From NCBI GenBank assembly GCA_049472355.1, contig JBLIRP010000074.1, forward strand, positions 1-18,186: a DNA stretch of 18,186 nt, read 5' to 3'. The notes below the pieces were generated by a model. The model was not told the DNA's origin. It searched no databases and saw nothing but the letters and a program-made list of their open reading frames with translations. Origin of the DNA: a bacterium (GTDB lineage Bacteria; SZUA-182; DTGQ01; JAFGSM01). Positions 1 through 14,788 of this stretch are shown one piece after another. A program made the translations under genes and the position numbers. The first letter of the stretch is position 1, and every line of letters begins with the position of its first letter.

Positions 1-98
1 AGCCTGCCGAACCGGCTGAAGAAGGGGGCCCAGGTCCGTGCGAGGCCCCGTTTAAGCAGGGAGAGTTCTTCTGCCTGATTCACGGGCGCTTGATTCAT
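1..98 (-). CDS. 5' end of a probable Lhr-like DEAD/DEAH-box helicase (partial, runs off the left edge; not in the ORF track)
   Basis: Minus strand from ATG 98 (or GTG 83) reads MNQAPVNQAEELSLLKRGLARTWAPFFSRFGR(L) with no stop to base 1. W-x-x-FF-x-RFG-x-L resembles the segment just before the Q-motif of Lhr-type SF2 helicases. It overlaps the 3' end of the upstream ATPase gene. Only 32 codons are visible. Confidence 0.6.
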   Translation of the reverse strand, partial: MNQAPVNQAEELSLLKRGLARTWAPFFSRFGR

Positions 99-1431
99 GG
101 GATACCAGGTGTGCCGGGTGTTTTCCCGGGTTGAAGCGGTGGAAGTCGAGGCACTCCACCATGGCCTTGATGAAGCGGCGCGTGGAATAGGAACTCGCCT
201 CCCGCGCCAGGTCGAATATGCGCCGGCGATACCCCTTCGGCACCTCGAACCGGTACACCCTCTCGTAGAGATCCATGAACCGGTAGAAGAGGTGTTCCAG
301 AAGGGATGCCGGCAGGGTTTCCAGGGTGATCTCGTAGATATTGTAATCCCTGGTGAGATACAGCGTGTAATCCGGGGTGAAGGCAAAGACCACCTTCAGG
401 AAGGAGGGCAACTGGTGCACATAGGGGATGCGAAGGTGGCCGGAATAGATAAGGGATGTCTTGGCCCCGGAGTAGCAGGTGGCCCCCTTCACCACCGCCT
501 CATCTGCAAGGTCGGGCTCGTCGTTTGCCACCATGGACAGGGCGTTGAAGAAATTGACCGCCCGCGACCATTCATAGGAGTAGCGGTAGGTGCGGGAGGT
601 CTCCGCCTCGTCGAACATGAGGATGATCCCCCTGAGGCCAAGCGCCCGGACCGCAAAGGCGCCCAGGCCGCTCAGGATGTTGCAGTATATGTTCGCCGCG
701 GTGGTGTGGTCGTAGAGGGTGCCGAATTCCGCGAAGCCGGTCTCCTGCCCCTCGATCCATTCCCACAGCTCCGGGGTGTCCCGCTCATCCCGGATCCTTT
801 CCAGTATCTTGCCAAGAAACCGGTGATCGGGAAGGGGATTCCGCTCGAGGTCCCTGCCGATGACGGTGAGCATCTCGTGAAGGGTATAGTACTGCCCCTG
901 AAAGGGAAAACGCAGGTTCCGGATGAGGTGGCGGTACACCCTCTTGGGGAACCCCGGCTGGGCGTCGCCCGGATTGATCCCTACCAGGCCCACCGCATAG
1001 TTCAGATCGAATCCGCTCGCGTGCAGGTACTCAATCAGGTGGCTCTTGCCGCTTCCGTATTCACCCCGGATGACCATGGTGCCGGATGTTTCGTCCTGCA
1101 GCCACTGCCGCACCCGGTCCACCTCCTGCTCCCTGCCCACGGTCCACTCCCTGATGGCCCGGACAGGCACGATCCCCATGCGGAATGCCTCGATCACCGA
1201 CCGGGCGTCCTCCGGTATGGGGGGTAAAATCTCCTTGGTGAGGGAGGGCCTGGGGAAGGGAAAGGGCTCTCCTTCTACAGGTTCATAGGCATCAATGAAG
1301 GTGAGGATGCTCCGTCTCAGCCACAACTGCACCGCGTGGGGGAACTGGACCAGGAACTCATGGCCGTGATGGCGCTGGTCGATGGCGATGCCCTCGCCGA
1401 ATATGGGGTGGCGCACCCTGGGGCATTCCAT
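52..1431 (-). CDS. DUF2791/BrxD-like P-loop ATPase with an N-terminal Tudor/SH3-like domain
   Basis: Family-type motif ARSVIEAFRMGIVP...TVGREQE, Walker A GEYGSGKS, Walker B IILMFDEAE. Start placed at ATG 1431 (GAAGGGG upstream) rather than TTG 1455; 459 aa. Confidence 0.85.
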   Translation of the reverse strand: MECPRVRHPIFGEGIAIDQRHHGHEFLVQFPHAVQLWLRRSILTFIDAYEPVEGEPFPFPRPSLTKEILPPIPEDARSVIEAFRMGIVPVRAIREWTVGREQEVDRVRQWLQDETSGTMVIRGEYGSGKSHLIEYLHASGFDLNYAVGLVGINPGDAQPGFPKRVYRHLIRNLRFPFQGQYYTLHEMLTVIGRDLERNPLPDHRFLGKILERIRDERDTPELWEWIEGQETGFAEFGTLYDHTTAANIYCNILSGLGAFAVRALGLRGIILMFDEAETSRTYRYSYEWSRAVNFFNALSMVANDEPDLADEAVVKGATCYSGAKTSLIYSGHLRIPYVHQLPSFLKVVFAFTPDYTLYLTRDYNIYEITLETLPASLLEHLFYRFMDLYERVYRFEVPKGYRRRIFDLAREASSYSTRRFIKAMVECLDFHRFNPGKHPAHLVSHESSARESGRRTLPA

Positions 1432-1444
1432 TACGTCATCCCCT

Positions 1445-2728
1445 TCATCCCTCAAGGAGCTTTATGGTCTGCTCCCGGCTGAAGGTCCCCGTGGGCTCCT
1501 TGCGCAGGATGTGGAAGGCCCTGATGATCCCCTGGACAAAGAGCCTCACGTAGCCGATGTCGCCGAAACGGCGCTCATAGGCCTCATGGGCCAGGCCCTG
1601 GATCACGGGTGCGATGTCATCCGGGAAGGCGATCTCGTAGGCCTGCTCGTAGATGGCCCTGAGCCGTGTGCCCACCTCCTCCAGGAAGGCGATGGGCTCC
1701 CGCTCCATCCCCTCCAGGCGGATCTTCACCCCTGAAGGGTTGTAGAAGTCGAAGATGCTCGATACGCGCTGTTTCAGGGCCTCGTACACATTCGATGCCC
1801 CCTCGAAGATGTTCTCGTCGGGAAGGGCGTAGAAGATCATCACGTTCTTGAACGAGGCATGCCCGCACTCGTCGATGATCTCCCGCAGATTGCTGAGCAT
1901 CAGCTCCCGCTGCTTGCTGCTCAGGCTGGGCACCTGCTCCGCCTCGTCGAAGAGGATCACCAGGCCCGCATACCCGATGTTCCTCACCCACTGGATCAGG
2001 GAGCGGATCATGGAAAAGGCGTTGCTTCGCTCGATGGGGTGAAGCAGGCCATACTCCTTGTGCACGTTCCTCTCATACCCCTCCAGCCGCAGCCACTGGA
2101 TGATGTTCCGGAAGTCCTCCTCGCGCTCGCGGTGCAGGGAGAGGAAGGCATTGGCAACCGCACGCGAAAAGTTCACGTTTTCGATGTTGTGCTGCACGGA
2201 CCGGGCATAGTCCTCGATCTCCCTATCCAGGGTCTCTGCCTGGAGCCCTGCCTGCCGGAAGATCTCCGCCTGCCGCTCGTACCAGGTGGCGATGAATGCC
2301 TCGACCCCCTTTTCCTGCCCCTTGAGGAGCTCTTCCGGGGTCATCGGGTACATGAGGTTGTTGACGATCGCCCGGTATACCAGCTCCAATCGGTAGAAGG
2401 GGGCCTCCTCGGAGCTCAGGTTCACGTAGCTCACCACGAAGTTCTCCTGCCAGGCGAGTTCCCTGATGTTGTAAAGGAAGTGGGTCTTCCCGCCCCCGTA
2501 AGCCCCGATGACCAGCTTGAAGGTCGATCCGCCGTCCTCCTTGATGAAGGTCTTCAGGTAGTCGTCATCGATGAGGTGCAGGTAGTCGTCGAGCCCCACC
2601 GTAAAGTACTGGAATCCCCATTCGGGCGGTGTGCCGAAGGAGCCCACCGTCTCGATGACCCGCCGTGCGATGTGTTTGTCGATCCGGTTATTCATGTCCT
2701 GTGTCTTTTCCAAGGGTTTATGGTCCAA
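1445..2728 (-). CDS. DUF2791/BrxD-like P-loop ATPase
   Basis: ARRVIETVGSFGTPP...FTVG N-terminal motif, Walker A GAYGGGKT, Walker B LVILFDEAE; 427 aa (start could be the later MNNR ATG); stop lies 13 nt before the next start. Confidence 0.85.
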   Translation of the reverse strand: MDHKPLEKTQDMNNRIDKHIARRVIETVGSFGTPPEWGFQYFTVGLDDYLHLIDDDYLKTFIKEDGGSTFKLVIGAYGGGKTHFLYNIRELAWQENFVVSYVNLSSEEAPFYRLELVYRAIVNNLMYPMTPEELLKGQEKGVEAFIATWYERQAEIFRQAGLQAETLDREIEDYARSVQHNIENVNFSRAVANAFLSLHREREEDFRNIIQWLRLEGYERNVHKEYGLLHPIERSNAFSMIRSLIQWVRNIGYAGLVILFDEAEQVPSLSSKQRELMLSNLREIIDECGHASFKNVMIFYALPDENIFEGASNVYEALKQRVSSIFDFYNPSGVKIRLEGMEREPIAFLEEVGTRLRAIYEQAYEIAFPDDIAPVIQGLAHEAYERRFGDIGYVRLFVQGIIRAFHILRKEPTGTFSREQTIKLLEG

Positions 2729-2750
2729 TTATTCCGTTCACCGGCGCACC

Positions 2751-3620
2751 CTACCGGGGTGCACGGGAGATGAAGCACACGGAGGCGAAATGGGTGCCGT
2801 CGCCGCGCGGGCTCTGCGGGACCCAGAGGTTTTCCTCCATCCGCTTGGTCTGCTCCCGGCTGGCGATGCCCAGGCGCAGCTCGTGGTCATTATACTGGCG
2901 CCGCTTCGTGCGGAAAAGGTCGTAGCTCAACTGCACCCGGCCGTAGCTTGTGAAGTGCTCCCTGCGGGGGTCCGCGAGAAATTTTGTGCCCTGCTTCTGC
3001 CAGGCGATCTCCCCGAGCCATCGGATGATGGGGAGGGTTGCGCCGGGGGCGAGCCCCTCCCGGATGATACACCGCCCATACGCATCAAACAGGAGCCTCA
3101 GGAATTCCTCTTCGTCCTTGAAGCTTGCACCCTCCAGGTCCTTGTACAGCGTGGTGACTGTGTCCGTGATCGAATCCACGGACAGCCTCGCCTTTCCCAG
3201 CAGCTCGATCCTGGGGCCGAACCAGATCCGGACCTGCCCCTGGGTGAGCAGAAATTCGAGGGTAAGAAGCCCCACCCGCAGCTCCGGAACATTGCCGGAG
3301 ATCTGCCATCCCTGCTCCCGGAACCGCCGGTCAAGCTCCGCCCCTAAATAATTCCTGAGTGTCTGTTTTGCAGGATCGAGGAGCCTCTTTTTCTCCTCCA
3401 CAAACTCCCGCACCCTTTGCAGGTCCTCACGCAGGTCCTTGAGGTCTTCGAATTGGGCGAGCCTCTCCTCAATCTTTCCAAGCCGCTCCTCAACCAGGTA
3501 GGCATTCTTCTCAATGTCCCTTTCCAGGGTCTCCCCCTCCTTGAGATACTTCTCCAACTGGGCGAGGTCCCGCCTTCCCTGATTCAGTTTTTTCCGCAGT
3601 TCCTGATACGTGGAACCCAT
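2751..3620 (-). CDS. Hypothetical protein: N-terminal coiled coil plus unknown globular C-terminal domain
   Basis: ATG 3620 preceded by GGAGG; first ~90 aa are heptad-like and E/K/R/L-rich; 289 aa; 22 nt gap to the first ATPase gene. Confidence 0.85.
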   Translation of the reverse strand: MGSTYQELRKKLNQGRRDLAQLEKYLKEGETLERDIEKNAYLVEERLGKIEERLAQFEDLKDLREDLQRVREFVEEKKRLLDPAKQTLRNYLGAELDRRFREQGWQISGNVPELRVGLLTLEFLLTQGQVRIWFGPRIELLGKARLSVDSITDTVTTLYKDLEGASFKDEEEFLRLLFDAYGRCIIREGLAPGATLPIIRWLGEIAWQKQGTKFLADPRREHFTSYGRVQLSYDLFRTKRRQYNDHELRLGIASREQTKRMEENLWVPQSPRGDGTHFASVCFISRAPR

Positions 3621-3764
3621 ATGGTTAAACCTCCGAAATAGACAGTTTACCAGAAACAGGGGAAAAATGCCAAAAAAAGGGGCATCCACATTATTCCCTG
3701 TCTTTTGGGAGGGGCCATGCCGCTATGGATGCGGATCAATCCTGTCAAACAACCCCCTGATTAT

Positions 3765-3800: not shown

Positions 3801-4493
3801 ATGAGAACGGTCGCCTGTCACCAGCCCATCTATATGCCATGGCCCGGATTCCTTTACAAGGCGCTCAAGGCGGATGTGGTCGTGCTCCTGGACAATATCC
3901 AGTTTCCCCTCGGGATCTCCTGGGTGAGCAGAAACCGGCTCAAGAACCACAACGGGGCATTCTGGCTCACCGTGCCCGTGTGGAAGAAGGGGAGGGGGAA
4001 GCAGCGGATCGACGAGGTCGCAATCTGCAATGATCGGGAGTGGCAAAGGAGGCAGTATGCGAGCATCACCCATGCCTACAAAAACGCCCCCTATTTTGGT
4101 GAACATGAGGAGTTCCTCAAGGAGATCTTCAACAGACGGTGGGAGCGCCTCGTCGATCTGAACACGGCGGTGCTCACGTATCTCTTTGACGCCCTGGGGA
4201 TTACCCGTGAGATTATCATGGGTTCGTCACTCGGAATCGAGGCCCGTGCCGAGGGATTGCTCATCGGCATATGCAGGAGGGTCAATGCCGGCTGCCTGGC
4301 AAGCCTCTCCTTCGGCAGGAAATACCTTGACGAAGCGACATTCAGAAAACAGGGGATCGAGGTGCGGTTGTATCGCTACACCCCCCCTGTGTATCCGCAG
4401 CTATGGGGTGATTTTCTTCCCAACCTCTCGACGCTCGATCTTCTGTTGAATTGCGGCGGCAGAAAAGGCCTGGAGATCTTGCAAAAGCGGTGA
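3801..4493 (+). CDS. WbqC-like family protein
   Basis: HQPIYMPWPGFLYK N-terminus, LDNIQF, WVSRNR, WLTVPV, AYKNAPYF, YPQLWGDFLPNLSTLDLLLNCG. The family N-terminus fits ATG 3801; 230 aa. Confidence 0.9.
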   Translation: MRTVACHQPIYMPWPGFLYKALKADVVVLLDNIQFPLGISWVSRNRLKNHNGAFWLTVPVWKKGRGKQRIDEVAICNDREWQRRQYASITHAYKNAPYFGEHEEFLKEIFNRRWERLVDLNTAVLTYLFDALGITREIIMGSSLGIEARAEGLLIGICRRVNAGCLASLSFGRKYLDEATFRKQGIEVRLYRYTPPVYPQLWGDFLPNLSTLDLLLNCGGRKGLEILQKR

Positions 4494-4918: not shown

Positions 4919-4948
4919 TTGACATAATTGCTGCCCGGAGAATATACT
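4919..4948 (+). promoter_or_regulatory. Sigma70-type promoter of the HEPN-MNT pair
   Basis: TTGACA (4919-4924), 18 nt, TATACT (4943-4948); 80 nt upstream of ATG 5029. Confidence 0.7.
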
Positions 4949-5028: not shown

Positions 5029-5418
5029 ATGAATCGAAGCAAGGATTGGTTGGAACAGGCGGAATTGGATTTACAGCATGCGGTGAATTCCAAAAAAAAT
5101 AAAGACTTCAACTGGGCTTGCTTCGCATCGCAACAGGCCGCAGAAAAGGCCATAAAATCACTCTACCTTTATCTCCACATGGAAGGCTGGGGGCACGTGA
5201 TAAAGAATCTGCTTGAGGAAATCAGTGAAGATATAGAAGTACCACATAATTTGTTTACCGCTGGAAAGAGATTGGATCAATACTATATACCAACAAGATA
5301 TCCAAACGGATTTGACGCAGGGAAACCTGCCGACTTTTATACCGAAGAGGATGCCCAAGAGGCCATCGATTATGCCAAAGAGATCATTGAATTCTGTAAA
5401 AACAAAATCAGTCCATAG
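5029..5418 (+). CDS. HEPN domain protein
   Basis: WLEQAELDL...ACFASQQAAEKAIK...WGH...LDQYYIPTRYP pattern typical of MNT-associated HEPN proteins; AAGGTG before ATG 5029; 129 aa. Confidence 0.9.
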   Translation: MNRSKDWLEQAELDLQHAVNSKKNKDFNWACFASQQAAEKAIKSLYLYLHMEGWGHVIKNLLEEISEDIEVPHNLFTAGKRLDQYYIPTRYPNGFDAGKPADFYTEEDAQEAIDYAKEIIEFCKNKISP

Positions 5419-5731
5419 GGATATAGTCATTAATCGACTGAAAGAATGGGCATATCAGATTACGGAAGAACATGAGGAAATCGTGAAAATTGGCTATTTT
5501 GGCTCATATGCGCGGGACGACTATACCCCATCCAGTGACCTGGATATTTTGATCGTCGTTAAAGAGTCACCAAAACCTCCCCATAAGCGTCTCCTCGACT
5601 ATTCCATAGATCATTTCCCAGTGGGTTGTGAGCTATTCGTATTTACCGAGGAAGAGCTGGAGAGAAAAAAGGCATTGAAAAGAGGATGGATGCATACGAT
5701 CCTCAAAGAAGTTCAGTGGATTTTATCCTGA
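5372..5731 (+). CDS. Minimal nucleotidyltransferase (MNT)
   Basis: YFGSYARDDYTPSSDLDILIV = hGS-x10-DxD Pol-beta superfamily motif; start uncertain (5372 or 5351); overlaps the HEPN 3' end; ~119 aa. Confidence 0.9.
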   Translation: MPKRSLNSVKTKSVHRDIVINRLKEWAYQITEEHEEIVKIGYFGSYARDDYTPSSDLDILIVVKESPKPPHKRLLDYSIDHFPVGCELFVFTEEELERKKALKRGWMHTILKEVQWILS

Positions 5732-6580: not shown

Positions 6581-7219
6581 TTAATAAATTCTTGTTGGAT
6601 AGCCGCCAACGCCGTAGCCACCGAAGCCACTATAATAGCCGCCAAAGCCACCAAAACTGCTGGCACCGGTATAGCCTAAGCCGCCGCCGCCGGGATAGCC
6701 ATAACCGCCACCATAGCCACCACTCCAGAGCGACCTAAAGGGACCCAGCATAAATCCGGATCCTCCAAATCCAAGCCCTTGATACATAGAGGTCATACTC
6801 TGACTGCCAAAAAACGGGTTATAGGATTCGGAAGTAGAGTATTGAGGGGCCCCATACGTGCCCATCATATAAGAGAGTGGAGAAGTAGGGAATTGAAACA
6901 TAGGCCCCGTAAAAAGACCGCCGATGGCACTGCCTCTGGAGGATGACGAAACCGTTCCGGTCATTGCCCCCATCCAATCGGGCATTGCGTATGAAACGGT
7001 TACATTGGGGAAAATTTCTCCCCGCATCAAGTCATACTGGCTCGTGTATTGACGGCCGGTATAATAGCACATACCTCCAATGCAGGTCCTTTCTTCCTCA
7101 TAGGCCTTCCCCGATCTTGCAGGTTCCTCTGCAGCCTTGGCGGCGATTCCGTGAAATCCCATAACCAGGCAGACGGCGACAAGGCATATGAATATTGTGG
7201 TAAAAATCCTCCTGCTCAT
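6581..7219 (-). CDS. Secreted Gly/Tyr/Ser/Phe-rich low-complexity protein
   Basis: SD AAGGGAG; basic plus hydrophobic signal peptide ending AAKA; CIGGMC pair; C-terminal GGYGGGYGYPGGGG...GGFGGYYSGFGGYG; own terminator; 212 aa. Confidence 0.8.
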   Translation of the reverse strand: MSRRIFTTIFICLVAVCLVMGFHGIAAKAAEEPARSGKAYEEERTCIGGMCYYTGRQYTSQYDLMRGEIFPNVTVSYAMPDWMGAMTGTVSSSSRGSAIGGLFTGPMFQFPTSPLSYMMGTYGAPQYSTSESYNPFFGSQSMTSMYQGLGFGGSGFMLGPFRSLWSGGYGGGYGYPGGGGLGYTGASSFGGFGGYYSGFGGYGVGGYPTRIY

Positions 7220-7659: not shown

Positions 7660-8170
7660 ATGGAACGGACCTCACCATATCGGTTGGTTTAAGCATCTAC
7701 CGCGCCATATGTCTTTGCGGTATGATTGAATGGGGACCTGTATCGAGAATTTGAGGGCATTGATTATCGCGATATATCGAAGTCCTGTGAGCATAATCAT
7801 TGGAATAATGCAGGGCCTTCGAGGTCCAATGGATGCGGATTTCAGTCATGATCGACTGCCGAGCGAATATGCGCACGGCTTGATATGATGCAATGAAAAA
7901 AAATCCGTTATCTAAGGAGAACCATCCACATGCATGCTCACTGCGGGCTGCTCACGTGAAGCAGAGGCTCATCCCCGGATATGAACTCTTCACACGGATA
8001 TCCGCCATCCGTTCGATGAACGCCTCTCGATCATCACCGGTCCCTATGCATTCATGTCGCAGATCAGGAATCAGCAGATCAGGGATCGCTTTTATTTAAA
8101 GGCGGTTCTTGGTACACTAAGGATGGTTCATGCGCATATCGTACGGTATTGGACATCGAAGGGTATCACG

Positions 8171-9448
8171 ATGATTGACAAGGAAAAACCGATGGCATCG
8201 AGCGGCCTCACGGATGGCCCGTTTCGGCGGTCTCCGGACCGGCCGCAGGTGTATGTCTCAGCAGGGCAGGGGCCCTATGCAAACACCAGGGCGGTGCTGG
8301 CCCGGATGGACCTCTCCCCTGCCCGGGGCAAACGGGTCCTGCTCAAGCCCAATGCCGGACGGGTCGCGCCCCCCGGCTCGGGGATCACCACCCATCCCCG
8401 GGTGATCGCCGCTGCCATGGATGCGTTCATGGAGGCAGGGGCTGAGGTGGCGGTGGGGGAGAGCCCCATCGTGGGGGTAAGGGCGCTCGATGCATTCGAT
8501 TGCATGGGGCTCACCCGGATCGCGCGCGAGCGCGGGTGCCGTGTCATTGACCTGGATGTGCATCACTTTGTGGGGGTGCGTATTCCGGACGGACGCGCCA
8601 TCAAGTCCCTCAAGGTCTGCCCGGAGGTGCTCGAATACGATATCGTGGTGTCCGTGCCGGTCATGAAGATGCACATGCACACCGGGGTGACCCTTGCCGT
8701 GAAGAACATGAAGGGGTGCCTGTGGCGCCGGAGCAAGGTTCAACTCCACATGTTGCCCCCGGTGGAGGGGTGTGACGACAAGCCGATCGATGTCGCGATC
8801 GCCGACATGTCCTCAGTGCTTCGGCCGCACCTTGCGATCATCGACGGCACCGTGGGCATGGAGGGGCTCGGCCCGAGCGCCGGCAAGGCCAAGCCCTTCG
8901 ATGTGATCGTGGCAGGGGCGGACGCCTATGCGGCGGATGCAATAGCGTGCAGGTTGATGGGCACGCAGGCGGAAAGGATACCGCACCTTCGCATCGGCGC
9001 GGGCCGCGGGTACGGGGTGATCGATCCCGGTGCCATCCTGGTCGTGCCGGGGGACTGGGGCCAATGGATCTCCCCGTTTTCACCGCCCCCCGAGCATCTT
9101 TCCATTGAATTCCCGGGCATCACCATCCTGGACAGGAATTCCTGCAGCGCATGCCAGTCGACACTCCTCTTGTTCCTGAAGCATTACGGGGACCGGCTTG
9201 CCGACTATTTCCCGCAGAACAGGGGCATATGCATCGCCATCGGCAATGGGCATGAGAGCCTGCCGGAGGGCACCCTGTGCATCGGGAACTGTACGATCCT
9301 TCACCGGGATTGCGGCATCTTCATACCCGGATGCCCCCCGGTGAGCAGCCAGATCCTGACCGCACTCTCGGGCAAGCCGTCGGTGGACCGTATCGACGGC
9401 CACATGGAGGGGCAGGATACCAAAAAGGGCCCCCCTGATGGAGACTAG
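8171..9448 (+). CDS. DUF362 domain protein with C-terminal Cys-rich (putative Fe-S) region
   Basis: RVLLKPN, TTHP, VGESP, VPVMKMH...VTLAVKNMKG, IIDGTVGMEGLGP; C-terminal CSAC...CIGNC...PGCPP. Start ATG 8171 (GAAGGG upstream) preferred over 8054. Confidence 0.85.
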   Translation: MIDKEKPMASSGLTDGPFRRSPDRPQVYVSAGQGPYANTRAVLARMDLSPARGKRVLLKPNAGRVAPPGSGITTHPRVIAAAMDAFMEAGAEVAVGESPIVGVRALDAFDCMGLTRIARERGCRVIDLDVHHFVGVRIPDGRAIKSLKVCPEVLEYDIVVSVPVMKMHMHTGVTLAVKNMKGCLWRRSKVQLHMLPPVEGCDDKPIDVAIADMSSVLRPHLAIIDGTVGMEGLGPSAGKAKPFDVIVAGADAYAADAIACRLMGTQAERIPHLRIGAGRGYGVIDPGAILVVPGDWGQWISPFSPPPEHLSIEFPGITILDRNSCSACQSTLLLFLKHYGDRLADYFPQNRGICIAIGNGHESLPEGTLCIGNCTILHRDCGIFIPGCPPVSSQILTALSGKPSVDRIDGHMEGQDTKKGPPDGD

Positions 9449-11015
9449 TGCATCGTCAGTGGAGGCGCTCGCCCGCGTCATGTTCGAGTCCATTGCCCGC
9501 GACTTCCCTGTTTCCTGCGCAAGCGATGAGTTTTACTATTTCCCTCAACTGCGTCTTTCCGATCCCGACTGGGAGGTCTGGGACCGCTTCTCCCCGCAGG
9601 GGGTGGGGGATCTCGCCAACCGGCTCTCAGCCTGGGAGGATGCGTTTGCCCGATGTGCCGCCGCTGGTTCTGTTGACGCGGATACCCGGATCGACCTGCA
9701 CCTTCTCACCGGTTTCGCCCGCACCCTCAGGGAGCAGGTATCCGAGGTCAGGACCTGGCAAACCCAGCCCACGGTTCCCCTCACCCTTGTCTGCATGGGG
9801 CTTGCCGAGGCCATGGCATCGGAAGACCCGGACGCCAAATACGCCAGGGCCAGGGGACTTCCCGCGTTTCTTGATCAGGCGGGGGAGAACCTCGTCGATG
9901 TGCCGGTGCACTTTCGCGACCTCGGCCTGGAGATGGTGGAGGACACCCGGAATTATCTCCTCTTCCTGAAGGGGATGATCCCCGAGATGGACCCGGCCAT
10001 CGAGGCCCTGGACCGATTCGGGCGTACGCTCAAGGGTGCGTCGACCCGCCAGGGGTTTCTCCTGCCCCCTGCCATGGTGGAGCGCATCATCCGCTTCCAC
10101 ATCCATTGCGACATGGACATGCAGGAGGTAGCCCGCACCCTCGATGAGGAAATCGAGGAGATGCGCCGGGTGCTGGAAGGGGAGGCCGGGCATCTCGTAC
10201 CGGAACCTCGGGGAGGTTCCGATCCCCTGTGGAGGGAGGTGCTGGACAGCATTCCAGGGCCTGAGATCGGAGAGGCCGGGGTGATCGGCCTCTATGGAGG
10301 TGAGGTACAAAGGCTTGCCGATCACTGCCGGGGGCATGGATTGATCCCGAAAGGCATGGGTTCATCCTGCCCGGTCCGTGTCCTGCCCATGCCGTCCTAT
10401 CTTTCGGCGATTCGCACCGCCCCCAGTTACAGCATATCCCCCGGTCATCCCCCTTCGCAGGGGATATTCTACATCTTCGAAGACCAGGGGACGGACGAGA
10501 CACGGCAAAGGTATCACCGTGAATACAGGATGCTCGCCGCCCATGAAACCTATCCCGGGCATCACCTCCTGGATGCCGCACGCTGGGGCCTGGTCCGGTC
10601 CTGCAGACGACCTGTTGAGCGGCCCATCTTCTATGAGGGGTGGGCATGTTTCGCCGAGGAGATCCTGAGACGAACCGGGTATTTTGCAGGGCCCGCGGAT
10701 CGATTCCTGCTTGCCAAGCGGAGGCTCTGGCGGGCCATCCGGGGAAAGGTGGACATCGGTCTTCAGACCGGGAGGATGGATATGGAGGCGGCTGCGCAAT
10801 GCCTCATGGAGACGGGGATCGGCAGGGAACAGGCCGTGTCGTCGGCTCGTCGCTACCCGTTGAACCCGGGATACCAGTTGTGCTACACCATGGGGTTGCA
10901 CAGGTTTCTCCACCTGTGTGACCGGTTTGGAGGCGGCGATATACGGGGATTTGCCGGGAGGGTTTTGACGCAGGGAGAGATCGGTTTTGACGACCTTGAC
11001 AGGATAGTCGCGTGA
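9438..11015 (+). CDS. DUF885 family protein (putative zinc metallopeptidase)
   Basis: AAHETYPGHHL and FYEGWACFAE motifs, RYPLNPGYQLCY; overlaps both neighbours or abuts them; 525 aa. Confidence 0.85.
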   Translation: METSASSVEALARVMFESIARDFPVSCASDEFYYFPQLRLSDPDWEVWDRFSPQGVGDLANRLSAWEDAFARCAAAGSVDADTRIDLHLLTGFARTLREQVSEVRTWQTQPTVPLTLVCMGLAEAMASEDPDAKYARARGLPAFLDQAGENLVDVPVHFRDLGLEMVEDTRNYLLFLKGMIPEMDPAIEALDRFGRTLKGASTRQGFLLPPAMVERIIRFHIHCDMDMQEVARTLDEEIEEMRRVLEGEAGHLVPEPRGGSDPLWREVLDSIPGPEIGEAGVIGLYGGEVQRLADHCRGHGLIPKGMGSSCPVRVLPMPSYLSAIRTAPSYSISPGHPPSQGIFYIFEDQGTDETRQRYHREYRMLAAHETYPGHHLLDAARWGLVRSCRRPVERPIFYEGWACFAEEILRRTGYFAGPADRFLLAKRRLWRAIRGKVDIGLQTGRMDMEAAAQCLMETGIGREQAVSSARRYPLNPGYQLCYTMGLHRFLHLCDRFGGGDIRGFAGRVLTQGEIGFDDLDRIVA

Positions 11016-11026
11016 AAGGGGACCTG

Positions 11027-12418
11027 ATGGCGGAGCGGTTTTGGGGATATCATTCGGAATGGAACCTGGGAAGCCCGGGTGGCTGGGACTATCAACGGAT
11101 CACCCAGACCATCGGCAAGGCGGTGTGGCAGCGACTCTTTCGAAAACGATCCATCGATATAGACCTTGACTTCGACCATCCCTTCCTCCATCCGGTGAAC
11201 GGGTTTGTGGCCATGCTGCAGGAGGCGCACCGGTCGCGGGAGGGCTCCGGCCCGGGCTTGATCGCCGTGGTCGCCGAACAGGAGACCCTGGAGGTGGTGG
11301 TGGAAAACAGCAACCTGGTGGCGCACCTTAACGCCGTGGAAGGGCTCTCCGGCGCACTCATGGCGCCGCACGAGCTCGAGCTTCGAAACGGGCGCGTCTG
11401 CTGGAAGGGACAGCCGGTATCCATTATCTTCATGGACTTCAATACGGACGTGCTCCTCGACCTGCACCGCAGGCACGACCTGACCCCCCTGCTCCAGGCC
11501 GTTGGCGAGGGGAGGGTCATCAACCCGCGGGGCACCGAGCCGATCAATGCCAAGAGCATGTTCGAGGTGATCACCGATCCTCGCAATGCCGGGCGTTTTC
11601 ACCAGGAGACCATTCAGCGGACCCCCTGGACGCGGCAGTTCTATCCCCGAAAGACCTTCGGACCTCAGGGGGAAGAGATCCCGGACCTGGTCGAATGGAC
11701 CCGTTCGCACTGGGAGGGGCTGGTGCTCAAGCCCGAGCGCGGCTATTCCGGCAAGGGGGTGTGCGTGGGGGGGATTCACCATGATATCGACGATATCATC
11801 GAACGGGCGCTCCGGAAGGGCGACTATATCGTCCAGGAAAAGATCCCCCTGCATCTGTGGTCGGAGATGCTGCCGGAGCTCGATATGGCGGCCCGGACCG
11901 TCACCGAGGTCTCCTTTCAGACGGATTTCCGCTGCCTTTTCGGTGGACACGGCCTGTTCGGCTTTCTCGGACGCTATGGAGGGGTGCCGACCAATGTGGG
12001 AAGCGGGGGCGGGGTGCAGCCCCTGGGGGTGCTTCGCTCCACCATGGATGTGGGTGAGGCAACGCAGCGGATCAACGACGCGATCCTTGCCATGGACTTC
12101 GGCGACGTGCTGGAGGCGGTGGAGCACCAGATGAAGATGTCCATGGATCATCGGTTCACCTATCTTCTGGGTCCCATCAAGATGGCCCTACGGCCTCGGT
12201 TGATCACCCCCGGTCAGATGGAGGCCCTGGAGGCCTACTGCGCGGGCATCTGGTCCGACTGCCTCACCATGGAGGGGATGTGGCTGTCCGGCGACCTGGG
12301 GGTCAACGTCACCATCGAGCCCGAGGAGATGGCGATCATTCGCTCCCAGTCCTGGGGAGGGTCGCCGGCCATCTTTGCCTCGGACGGGTTGTTCAGCTTC
12401 GGCGCGCACAGGAGATGA
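11027..12418 (+). CDS. ATP-grasp ligase related to circularly permuted / glutathionylspermidine-synthase-like families
   Basis: VINP...AKSMFEVI, PWTR, LVLKPERGYSGKGV, YIVQEKI, TNVGSGGG, N-terminal EWN-x-x-SPGG. Start ATG 11027 (SD AAGGGG) or GTG 11012. Confidence 0.8.
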   Translation: MAERFWGYHSEWNLGSPGGWDYQRITQTIGKAVWQRLFRKRSIDIDLDFDHPFLHPVNGFVAMLQEAHRSREGSGPGLIAVVAEQETLEVVVENSNLVAHLNAVEGLSGALMAPHELELRNGRVCWKGQPVSIIFMDFNTDVLLDLHRRHDLTPLLQAVGEGRVINPRGTEPINAKSMFEVITDPRNAGRFHQETIQRTPWTRQFYPRKTFGPQGEEIPDLVEWTRSHWEGLVLKPERGYSGKGVCVGGIHHDIDDIIERALRKGDYIVQEKIPLHLWSEMLPELDMAARTVTEVSFQTDFRCLFGGHGLFGFLGRYGGVPTNVGSGGGVQPLGVLRSTMDVGEATQRINDAILAMDFGDVLEAVEHQMKMSMDHRFTYLLGPIKMALRPRLITPGQMEALEAYCAGIWSDCLTMEGMWLSGDLGVNVTIEPEEMAIIRSQSWGGSPAIFASDGLFSFGAHRR

Positions 12419-12422
12419 ACGG

Positions 12423-13232
12423 ATGATGGCCATGCATGTTGATGAGGACTGGTGGAAGGGGCTTTTCGATGAGGTCTATCTCCTGACCGATGCACGGTCC
12501 GTGTGCAACGATGCACTGACCGCACAGGAGGTCGATTTCCTCATCCGGGTGCTGAGGCCGGAAAGGGACGCACCCATACTGGATCTGTGCGGAGGGCAGG
12601 GGAGGCATTCCCTCGAGCTGTCCAGGCGCGGGTTCATGAACGTCACCGTGCTCGATTATTCACGCTGCCTCGTGGACCTGGGGAAAAGGAGGGCCAGGCA
12701 GGAGAATCTCGAGACCCGTTTCATTCAGGCAGATGCGAGAAATACCGGTTTGTCCGCACAGAGCTTCCGGCACATCATCATCATGGCCAGTTCCTTCGGA
12801 TACTTCGTGAACGATGATGAAAACAGACGGCTCCTCACCGAGGCCTTTCGGCTGCTCGAGCCACAGGGATTGGTGCTGCTGGACCTTCCCGACCGGGACC
12901 ATGTGGTGCGAAACTTCAAGCCCTTTTCCAGCCACGAGGTCGACGCGGACATCACCGTCACCCGCGAGCGGATATTGGGGGACGACATCATCTACAGCCG
13001 GGAGATGGTCATGTCCGAGAGCAAGGGGTGCGTGCGCGCCACCACCTACTGCACCCGCCTGTACACCGAGCAGAGGATCTCGGCCCTGTTGCGCTCTGCA
13101 GGGTTTTCCTCGATAGAGTGCACCAAGGGCTTCATGAATCGCGCCCGCCAAGGGGACTTCGGCTGCATGACCAACCGGATGATCGTCACCGCACATAAGG
13201 ATAGCGATAGCAATAATGCGATCCTGCAATGA
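12423..13232 (+). CDS. Class I SAM-dependent methyltransferase
   Basis: Motif I ILDLCGGQGRH, VTVLDYS, FIQADAR, SSFGYF, LLEPQGLVLLD; SD AGGAG before ATG 12423; 269 aa. Confidence 0.9.
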   Translation: MMAMHVDEDWWKGLFDEVYLLTDARSVCNDALTAQEVDFLIRVLRPERDAPILDLCGGQGRHSLELSRRGFMNVTVLDYSRCLVDLGKRRARQENLETRFIQADARNTGLSAQSFRHIIIMASSFGYFVNDDENRRLLTEAFRLLEPQGLVLLDLPDRDHVVRNFKPFSSHEVDADITVTRERILGDDIIYSREMVMSESKGCVRATTYCTRLYTEQRISALLRSAGFSSIECTKGFMNRARQGDFGCMTNRMIVTAHKDSDSNNAILQ

Positions 13233-13999: not shown

Positions 14000-14788
14000 T
14001 CAGGGAACCTCGGGGATGTTTCTTCCGTAGAAGATCTCGATCATCTCCTTGTTCAAAAGCTTCTTGAGCTTCTGCTCTTCACCGGGGGGCAGGTCCCTTT
14101 TCGACCTTCCGAACAGATAGTTGTCAAGGTCGAATTCCTTCAGAATCATCTTGGTATGGAAGATGTTCTCCTGATAGATATTCACATCAACCGCCTGGTA
14201 GTTCTTCAGGAGATCCTCTTTGATAAAGTTTTGGATCGAGTTGATCTTGTGATCAAGGAAAACCTTTCTTCCCCGGGCGTCCCGGGTGAATCCCCTGACC
14301 CGGTAATCCATGACGATGATATCCGATTCAAAGCTGGTGATGAGGAAGTCTAATGCATTCAACGGGGATATCCTTCCGCAGGTGGATACGTCGATATCCA
14401 CCCGAAAGGTGGTGGTCCCGCTTGCCGGGTGTTTCTCCGGATAGGTGTGGACGCTCAGGTGGCTTTTATCCAGGTGGGCGACGATACCCTCGGTGCACTC
14501 CTCCACACCCTTTCTTTCTTCCGCGATCAATACGGTGACGCTTGCGCCGCGGGGGATATAGTCCTGACTGGCGATATTGAGGATGTTCGCACCGATGATC
14601 TCTGAGACGCGCTTGAGGATGTCGGTCAGCCTGTCGGAGTTGTATTTGTCGTCGATATACTGGAGGTACCCGCTCTGTTCCTCGGGATTCATCGCATAGC
14701 AGACATCATAGATATTAAAGCTCAGCATCTTGGTAAGGTTGTTGAATCCGTAAAGTTTTAACCGTTTTTTGATCGGCTTGATGTTCAC
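14000..14788 (-). CDS. speD: S-adenosylmethionine decarboxylase proenzyme (E. coli-type)
   Basis: [19 protein letters not shown], AHLDKSH self-cleavage site, [32 protein letters not shown] start; 262 aa. Confidence 0.95.

Follow-up and report, generated by a model that had tools for sequence, protein, structure and literature searches.

The window analysed here, a stretch of 18,186 nt (GenBank assembly GCA_049472355.1, contig JBLIRP010000074.1), makes up all of contig C121 in a bacterial draft genome of 3.49 Mb. At its left end it carries four co-oriented genes on the minus strand, designated A, B, C and D, which encode a protein of an unnamed family, two ATPases of the DUF2791 family and the beginning of a superfamily 2 (SF2) helicase. 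The features of this operon are the following:

Gene A: 3620-2751, minus strand; 289 amino acid residues (aa), unnamed family, no Pfam family above the cut-off.
Gene B: 2695-1445, minus strand; 416 aa, AAA+ ATPase of the DUF2791/BrxD family (PF10923, E 1.8e-50).
Gene C: 1431-52, minus strand; 459 aa, second ATPase of the DUF2791 family (PF10923, E 3.3e-19).
Tudor-like domain of the PcrA/UvrD type at the N-terminus of C: 1431-1282, minus strand; ∼50 aa.
Gene D, first 32 codons: 98-1, minus strand; SF2 helicase like BrxHI and SngC (Lhr-like), cut by the contig end.
Sigma-70-like consensus site upstream of A: 3644..3673, minus strand; pattern match only, 9 of 12 positions.

B and C are separated by 13 nt and C overlaps D by 47 nt, in agreement with the tight packing and common orientation described in the first-pass annotation of this DNA. 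The gap of 22 nt given there between A and B is obtained only if B starts at TTG 2728; since in relatives the first residue of B corresponds to ATG 2695, the latter start was adopted, and the gap becomes 55 nt. The reading of B and C as divergent ATPases of one family was upheld: both match PF10923, they are 21% identical, and the Walker A (GAYGGGKT in B, GEYGSGKS in C) and Walker B motifs (LFDE in B, MFDE in C) are intact. Because the window holds just 32 codons of D and the remainder was not found in this assembly, in which the best matches elsewhere were other helicases with 21-27% identity, D is known only through its relatives. Leftward extension of the contig had been proposed, but the contigs of four sequencing runs contained no sequence past the window's left end. 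Metatranscriptome contigs (two runs of one study) overlapped parts of all four genes and also neighbouring DNA, with small word shares and many differences. Five sigma-70-like sites were found in the region, compared with 1.4 expected from shuffles.

A scan with the alignment of B confirmed 384 loci, and the architectures were counted in the best 80 of these. The order A-B-C-D, whose conservation had been put forward as a check, was found in 50 of the 80, in bacteria as well as in archaea. A further 12 loci had A-B-C without an adjacent D and 8 had A-B-C cut by a contig end; the rest comprised B-C without A and D (4, and one more in which A could not be called), B-C-D without A (1, and 2 cut) and A-B cut (2). 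Wherever both were visible (78 of 80), B and C were adjacent, locus L083 having an insertion between them. According to the record titles, the loci belong to Desulfobacterales, Myxococcota, Chloroflexota, Poribacteria, Ca. Brocadia, Ca. Methanoperedens and ANME archaea, and in a FastTree phylogeny the archaeal rows (Methanobacteriota) formed one well-supported branch together with two bacterial-labelled rows. As the gene order is kept across domains of life, the arrangement is not a matter of chance. The pairwise identities of A, B, C and D co-varied over 40 loci (Spearman 0.77-0.84), which shows co-inheritance only, because related loci are not independent.

The four genes are one conserved, widespread and unnamed module. 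In the closest complete relatives the operon stops after D; a conserved fifth gene was rejected, since no neighbour cluster occurred in more than 7 of the best 80 loci, and no nuclease, methylase or toxin was found as a conserved member among these clusters. Single cases of other neighbours were a UvrD helicase gene directly after D (L039:14293-16299) and a MutL gene directly before A (L070:7291-9069). The A family comprises 735 representatives at E ≤ 1e-3, and distant A homologues at L217:11332-12180 and L218:5390-6862 had no B, C or D within the fetched stretch. No description of the four-gene module was found in the literature consulted, which left most subscription papers and the supplements of PMC12839542 outside its scope, and an earlier mention is possible; the available part of 10.1101/2025.09.30.679545 does not mention it.

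A plasmid search with B revealed a second form of the operon on plasmids of Desulfomonile tiedjei and Aulosira laxa. This form, subtype II, shares homology with the window's branch, subtype I, over each of the four genes (E about 1e-16 for A); its A family was found in 116 metagenome loci, and the gene order in the best 80 of the 116 was the same as in subtype I. The Tudor domain was present on C in 69 of 78 subtype I sequences vs none of 57 in subtype II, and the subtype II helicase has ∼700 aa, compared with 518-546 aa in the nearest 50 subtype I loci, all 50 with the DExH motif; a distant subtype I branch has both a Tudor domain and a helicase of ∼670-740 aa. In a quick IQ-TREE analysis of 73 rows, six separate clades were formed by B-I, C-I, B-II, C-II, BrxD (3 rows) and SngB (2 rows), with C-I and C-II on one side of the tree (SH-aLRT support 95, with a long-branch warning). 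Because C-I and C-II group together, the doubling of the ATPase, which the first-pass annotation noted at this locus, is probably old and common to both subtypes. A recent tandem duplication was rejected, as C of both subtypes lies on one side of the tree. Subtype I had no match among plasmids, phages and viral contigs in collections that are poor in these host lineages, and the phage and viral collections held no subtype II member either. Subtype II operons were observed inside or against BREX-type loci (L157, L158, L177, L150 and L093), adjoining BrxL in three loci and back to back with PglW/PglX in one. On the Aulosira plasmid the operon lies directly behind pglZ-brxD-brxHI, so that this plasmid carries three DUF2791 ATPases and two related helicases.

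In the ATPase B, residues K70, D250, E251, R310 and R384 were invariant in 79 of 79 sequences. R384 is the sensor-2 residue, and R310, which aligns with Arg in the B-II, BrxD and SngB rows, is read as a putative arginine finger. In C, the Walker A and Walker B residues and the sensor-2 Arg (K129, D274, E275 and R418) were likewise invariant (61 of 61). A conserved arginine finger was not found in C: in residues 354-366, Arg occurred in at most 22 of 61 sequences per column, the segment varies in length, and the window's own C carries an unconserved Arg there. In AAA+ ATPases the arginine finger of one subunit completes the ATP site of its neighbour; a finger in B with none conserved in C argues for a B-C heteromer, and C is unlikely to work as a homo-oligomer because it has no conserved finger. 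The heteromeric ATPase suggested earlier is therefore plausible from this asymmetry in the alignments. No solved relative of B was found by sequence search. The model of C (mean predicted local distance difference test score, pLDDT, 90) gave Orc1/Cdc6 proteins as its best fold matches (1w5s, Z 16.3; 2qby, Z 16.1; 1fnn, Z 15.6), with a root-mean-square deviation (rmsd) of 3.2 over 247 aligned residues for 1w5s. The match spans residues 76-450 of C; the model ends ∼25 residues past the helical lid, without strands there, and thus has no winged helix.

The profile of the N-terminal 50 residues of C, a domain missed in the first-pass annotation, had the C-terminal domains of UvrD/PcrA as its best PDB matches (E 3e-4 to 4e-3); PF21196 was matched in 11 of 40 members, and the C model has a five-strand N-terminal domain. 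From these profile matches, the Tudor domain of C is homologous to PcrA/UvrD's C-terminal domain. The available part of PMC8318588 describes binding of the PcrA Tudor domain to a beta-hairpin motif, [VIL]-D-x-x-T-G-E-[VIL]-[VILT], in RpoB and UvrB, and that of PMC5397179 names H681, W684, K712 and L714 as required for binding by PcrA. The equivalents of His681 and Phe705 were invariant in 40 of 40 C Tudor domains. The position of K712 (numbering of G. stearothermophilus PcrA) was Trp in 38 of 40, the register being taken from a seven-residue offset from the invariant Phe because the alignment stops earlier.

The D proteins of relatives, ∼525 aa long and with the same N-terminus as the window's D, matched BrxHI and SngC at E 1e-68 to 1e-72, so that the Lhr-like assignment of D stands by way of the relatives; the absence of Domain 4 had been overlooked. 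The GKT motif was invariant in 43 of 43 relatives and DExH in 50 of 50. No match to Domain 4 (PF08494) was obtained in three relatives' D proteins, and subtype I D stops just past the beta-barrel that, in five canonical Lhr proteins, is followed by Domain 4. According to the part of PMC8301817 available, Domain 4 is essential for unwinding by Thermococcus aLhr2. Subtype I D has a hairpin, D-x-x-T/S-G, similar to the PcrA-bound motif. A relaxed pattern for it was found in 50 of 51 helicases encoded next to a C with a Tudor domain (L044 was dropped as misaligned), in 0 of 40 subtype II helicases, in 0 of 5 BrxHI/SngC and in 0 of 5 canonical Lhr proteins, whose hairpin has equal length; a stricter pattern was present in 33 of 52 loci with a Tudor-bearing C and in 6 of 12 Tudor-less subtype I loci. 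The Trp in place of Lys in the Tudor domain and the mostly absent Glu in the hairpin would fit a private Tudor-hairpin interface. In four archaeal genomes (L200:7000-10236, L201:6998-10009, L210:7410-10007 and L211:8812-11868), the frame of C carries an acidic, repeat-rich N-terminal region of 500-700 residues in place of the Tudor domain, and the operon lies at the same site, adjoining a gene read as isoleucyl-tRNA synthetase.

Protein A had been called a coiled-coil protein, a description that suits only its first ∼100 residues, the other ∼190 forming two folded domains. The model (pLDDT 96) consists of an N-terminal three-helix bundle (∼5-100), a five-stranded beta-meander (∼105-165) and a C-terminal alpha/beta domain (∼167-288). 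When Foldseek's top 1000 chains were re-aligned with VIA, residues 167-288 aligned with the C-terminal parts of Orc1 chains, which we take to be winged helices, in seven entries (Z 5.3-6.7). The best match was 8s0e (Z 6.7, rmsd 3.4, 78 aligned residues), followed at Z 5.3-5.9 by 9gm5, 5v8f, 7jps, 9gjp, 5uj7/5ujm and 7jk5. The middle domain had weak matches only (frataxin-like rows with Foldseek; Z 5.2-5.4 in the re-alignment), to which no weight is given. A whole-model Foldseek search gave no match at E ≤ 1e-3, a wide VIA search with A returned helical bundles only, and in the Atlas A fell into unnamed clusters only. Since the scores lie in a middle range and nothing was gained from sequence searches, the modelled C-terminal domain is likely to be winged-helix-like, and a specific relationship to Orc1 is no more than a possibility.

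The module is related to BrxD-BrxHI and SngB-SngC and is neither Shango nor BREX; a distinct system akin to both had been suggested, and no full match to either was found. Like Shango, it is a stand-alone operon in which an upstream partner is followed by a DUF2791 ATPase and an Lhr-like helicase. However, the TerB proteins of two Shango loci have 769 and 1023 aa, whereas A has 289 aa and is unrelated by profile, with no match to TerB/SngA in Pfam or PADLOC at E ≤ 0.1. The module also differs in having two ATPases, each in a clade apart from SngB (2 rows; SngB profile E 4.5e-30 for B and 2.2e-10 for C), a Tudor domain on C and a D of ∼525 aa instead of ∼720, and it is rarely found on plasmids. 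The D proteins of relatives matched SngC at E ∼1e-70, aligned only to position 538 of the 720-position profile. Shango is also treated in the available part of 10.1101/2022.05.11.491447. With BREX type 2 (Pgl) the module shares the ATPase and helicase families of BrxD-BrxHI; BrxD is classed as ORC-Cdc6-like, and proposed as the loader of BrxHI, in the part of PMC12839542 available. In contrast to BREX type 2, PglZ, PglX, BrxC and PglW were not among the subtype I neighbour proteins scanned (141 of 285), the BrxD family NF033438 was matched with 143 bits by B and 48.7 by C against a cut-off of 350, and BrxHI has a C-terminal Lhr-type domain that D lacks.

Beyond these two systems, the modelled fold of C and the predicted winged-helix match of A recall Orc1/Cdc6, as do the unequal ATPase subunits, but the winged helix would lie on the separate A rather than on the C chain, the partner is an SF2 helicase rather than MCM, and the module occurs in a minority of genomes. 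The Tudor domain is homologous to that of PcrA/UvrD and the hairpin of D has a similar sequence, but the arrangement is reversed, with the Tudor domain on the ATPase and the motif-like hairpin on the helicase. D also resembles the Lhr-like group of Lhr helicases in PMC8301817: its two RecA domains and the next region align with canonical Lhr, and it has no Pfam Domain 4; the operon context of the module is not mentioned in the available part of that paper.

Several properties of the module are those of resident genes. Compared with 1672 open reading frames (ORFs) of the host, the codon usage of the operon's genes ranked at the 95th, 99th and 94th percentile, and recent acquisition by this host was rejected on this native codon usage. 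Flanks were shared among seven Myxococcota loci, among three Methanoperedens loci, among L200/L201/L210/L211 and among L205/L206/L213/L214, and most genomes carrying the module have one copy. In genomes with a broken-up operon, A was located at another place in 5 of 5 that were tested, and D in 4 of 5 (drawn from the 17 loci in which D is not adjacent); these detached genes matched over their full length with 45-69% identity, and their neighbours look housekeeping from gene names judged by eye. In the loci with B-C alone, L224-L227, A lies at one site, directly after genes read as hexulose-phosphate synthase and isomerase.

We propose that A, B and C form a heteromeric loader resembling the origin recognition complex (ORC), which would bring in and activate the shortened Lhr-like helicase D, probably for upkeep of the host chromosome in this branch; as a whole this proposal is held tentatively, at a little under an even chance. 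The loader as a mechanism, taken alone, is reasonably probable, and as to role, upkeep (with its transcription-coupled variant, given below) and defence stand close to even. The arginine finger of B would complete the ATP site of C, and C would end the oligomer. The DNA-binding winged helix, which Orc1/Cdc6 have in cis, may come from A in trans, and the Tudor domain of C would grip the D-x-x-T/S-G hairpin of D. The loader may thereby compensate for the clamp domain absent from D, so that D would unwind only where it is loaded. Damaged or stalled DNA and RNA:DNA hybrids are possible sites, a substrate guessed from the biology of the Lhr family.

A number of observations weigh against this interpretation. 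The relaxed hairpin pattern was defined post hoc, belongs to a common type of beta-turn and amounts essentially to one clade contrast; it also occurs in 8 of 12 Tudor-less subtype I loci, the four exceptions (L200, L201, L210 and L211) having Asn at the hairpin Asp, while the complete published motif was found in no D sequence and its key Glu in only 4. The winged-helix scores of A are middling (rmsd 3.4-4.5) and come from the re-alignment of Foldseek's top 1000 chains, and profile searches of the two C-terminal domains of A against PDB sequences gave no match. Presence is patchy, as it is for defence systems: of 19 further genomes of the class, 4 carried the module, it was not found in a genome of the window's genus that is 97% complete, flanks differ within that genus, and in two other groups 27 of 201 and 74 of 301 genomes carry it (including the centre genome and one weak match in each). 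These host lineages are thinly represented in the plasmid and phage collections, and the two relatives that have been characterised, BREX type 2 and Shango, both act against phages. Neighbours within three genes were scanned with PADLOC at 1e-25 (141 of 285 subtype I proteins), with the window's genome only as control (129 of 150 genes), and generic matches (kinase, UvrD, sigma-54 activators, ABC, RsmB, RT) were set aside by judgement. Restriction-modification (RM) or OLD-type neighbours numbered 6 of 141 for subtype I vs 0 of 129 in the control (p 0.03). The excess fell to 8 of 141 vs 2 of 129 once candidate systems were included (p 0.11), and Pfam defence neighbours were found for 12 of 127 subtype II proteins (127 of 150 scanned) vs 7 of 141 for subtype I (p 0.16). 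The defence-island enrichment that had been proposed as a check is thus real but modest, and it leaves the role undecided.

The same loader anatomy would serve an anti-phage or anti-plasmid system, a relative of Shango and BrxD-BrxHI that stands alone, in which A, B and C would sense the DNA of an invader and load D so that replication of this DNA is blocked. This is a serious contender, though on its own it falls clearly short of an even chance. The patchy presence and the RM or OLD neighbours speak for it, as do the nearest profiles, which are BrxD/SngB and BrxHI/SngC; for Shango, 10- to 100-fold protection is given in the available part of 10.1101/2022.11.11.516204. In addition, subtype II lies behind pglZ-brxD-brxHI on the Aulosira plasmid, beside AbiEi/AbiEii on the Desulfomonile plasmid and, in 8 of the 47 loci scanned, next to BrxL, PglW/PglX, McrBC or RM genes, and a HEPN-nucleotidyltransferase pair is located 1.4 kb upstream of A in the window. 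However, the module has no conserved nuclease, methylase or toxin, the neighbour excess shrinks as described, and native codon usage, fixed sites and retention of genes after break-up of the operon would be unusual for a mobile cassette. Of the earlier suggestion of an anti-phage or DNA-surveillance system, the distinct module has been retained, and defence is not established.

In a variant of the upkeep proposal, the Tudor domain would bind RNA polymerase or UvrB, and the transcription-coupled loader would send the helicase to stalled elongation complexes or R-loops. We regard this as improbable, although the nearest solved relatives of the Tudor domain bind these two partners (available parts of PMC5397179 and PMC8318588), the His681 and Phe705 equivalents are invariant, and a 1330-aa ORF on host contig C101, read as RpoB, has the complete motif. 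Against it, the position of K712, needed for polymerase binding, is nearly always Trp in the register adopted, and the archaeal members retain the Tudor domain. To our knowledge, the insert of the bacterial beta subunit is not expected in archaea. That the genes are merely co-transcribed, with B and C as separate homo-oligomers and A or D loosely linked, is very unlikely: A or D stands apart from B-C in 18 of the best 80 loci, but the detached genes are still kept in the genome, and the order is common to two deeply diverged subtypes. The widest form of the upkeep proposal is a prokaryotic 'ORC in pieces', in which unequal ATPases, a separate winged-helix subunit and a Tudor-hairpin tether would load a monomeric, clamp-less SF2 helicase for resident chromosome maintenance in bacteria and methane-cycling archaea, as a domesticated or ancestral form of the BREX type 2/Shango pair; in this breadth it is speculative and rather unlikely.

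The remainder of the window holds several other genes. The HEPN gene and the minimal nucleotidyltransferase gene that follows it (5032-5731, plus strand) lie in a stretch of 42% GC and look like a toxin-antitoxin pair; a sigma-70-like site matching 11 of 12 positions was found ahead of them at 4919-4948. A WbqC-family gene (3810-4493, plus strand), divergent from A, is not in the flanks of the closest relatives. Four overlapping genes of 62% GC (8054-13232, plus strand) encode a DUF362-like protein (weak NF052623 match), a SAM methyltransferase and two proteins of 525 and 468 aa without an NCBIfam family, and may be peptide- or amine-modifying. An S-adenosylmethionine decarboxylase gene was located at 14000-14788, and a 212-aa ORF (6581-7219, minus strand) has a signal-peptide-like start and a Gly/Tyr/Ser-rich tail.

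The module described here is the BrxD-BrxHI/SngB-SngC core without a methylase, nuclease or TerB protein, and it opens the loader idea to mutants in R310 of B, each Walker B motif, the hairpin Asp and the winged helix of A, and to deletion of the Tudor domain. If the anti-phage role holds, it would be a widespread system without a PADLOC 2.0 model. If resident maintenance holds, it would represent an undescribed DNA-processing pathway, carried by methane-cycling archaea and by about one quarter of the 301 genomes that were sampled in a single bacterial phylum, as well as an instance of exchange between defence and housekeeping.

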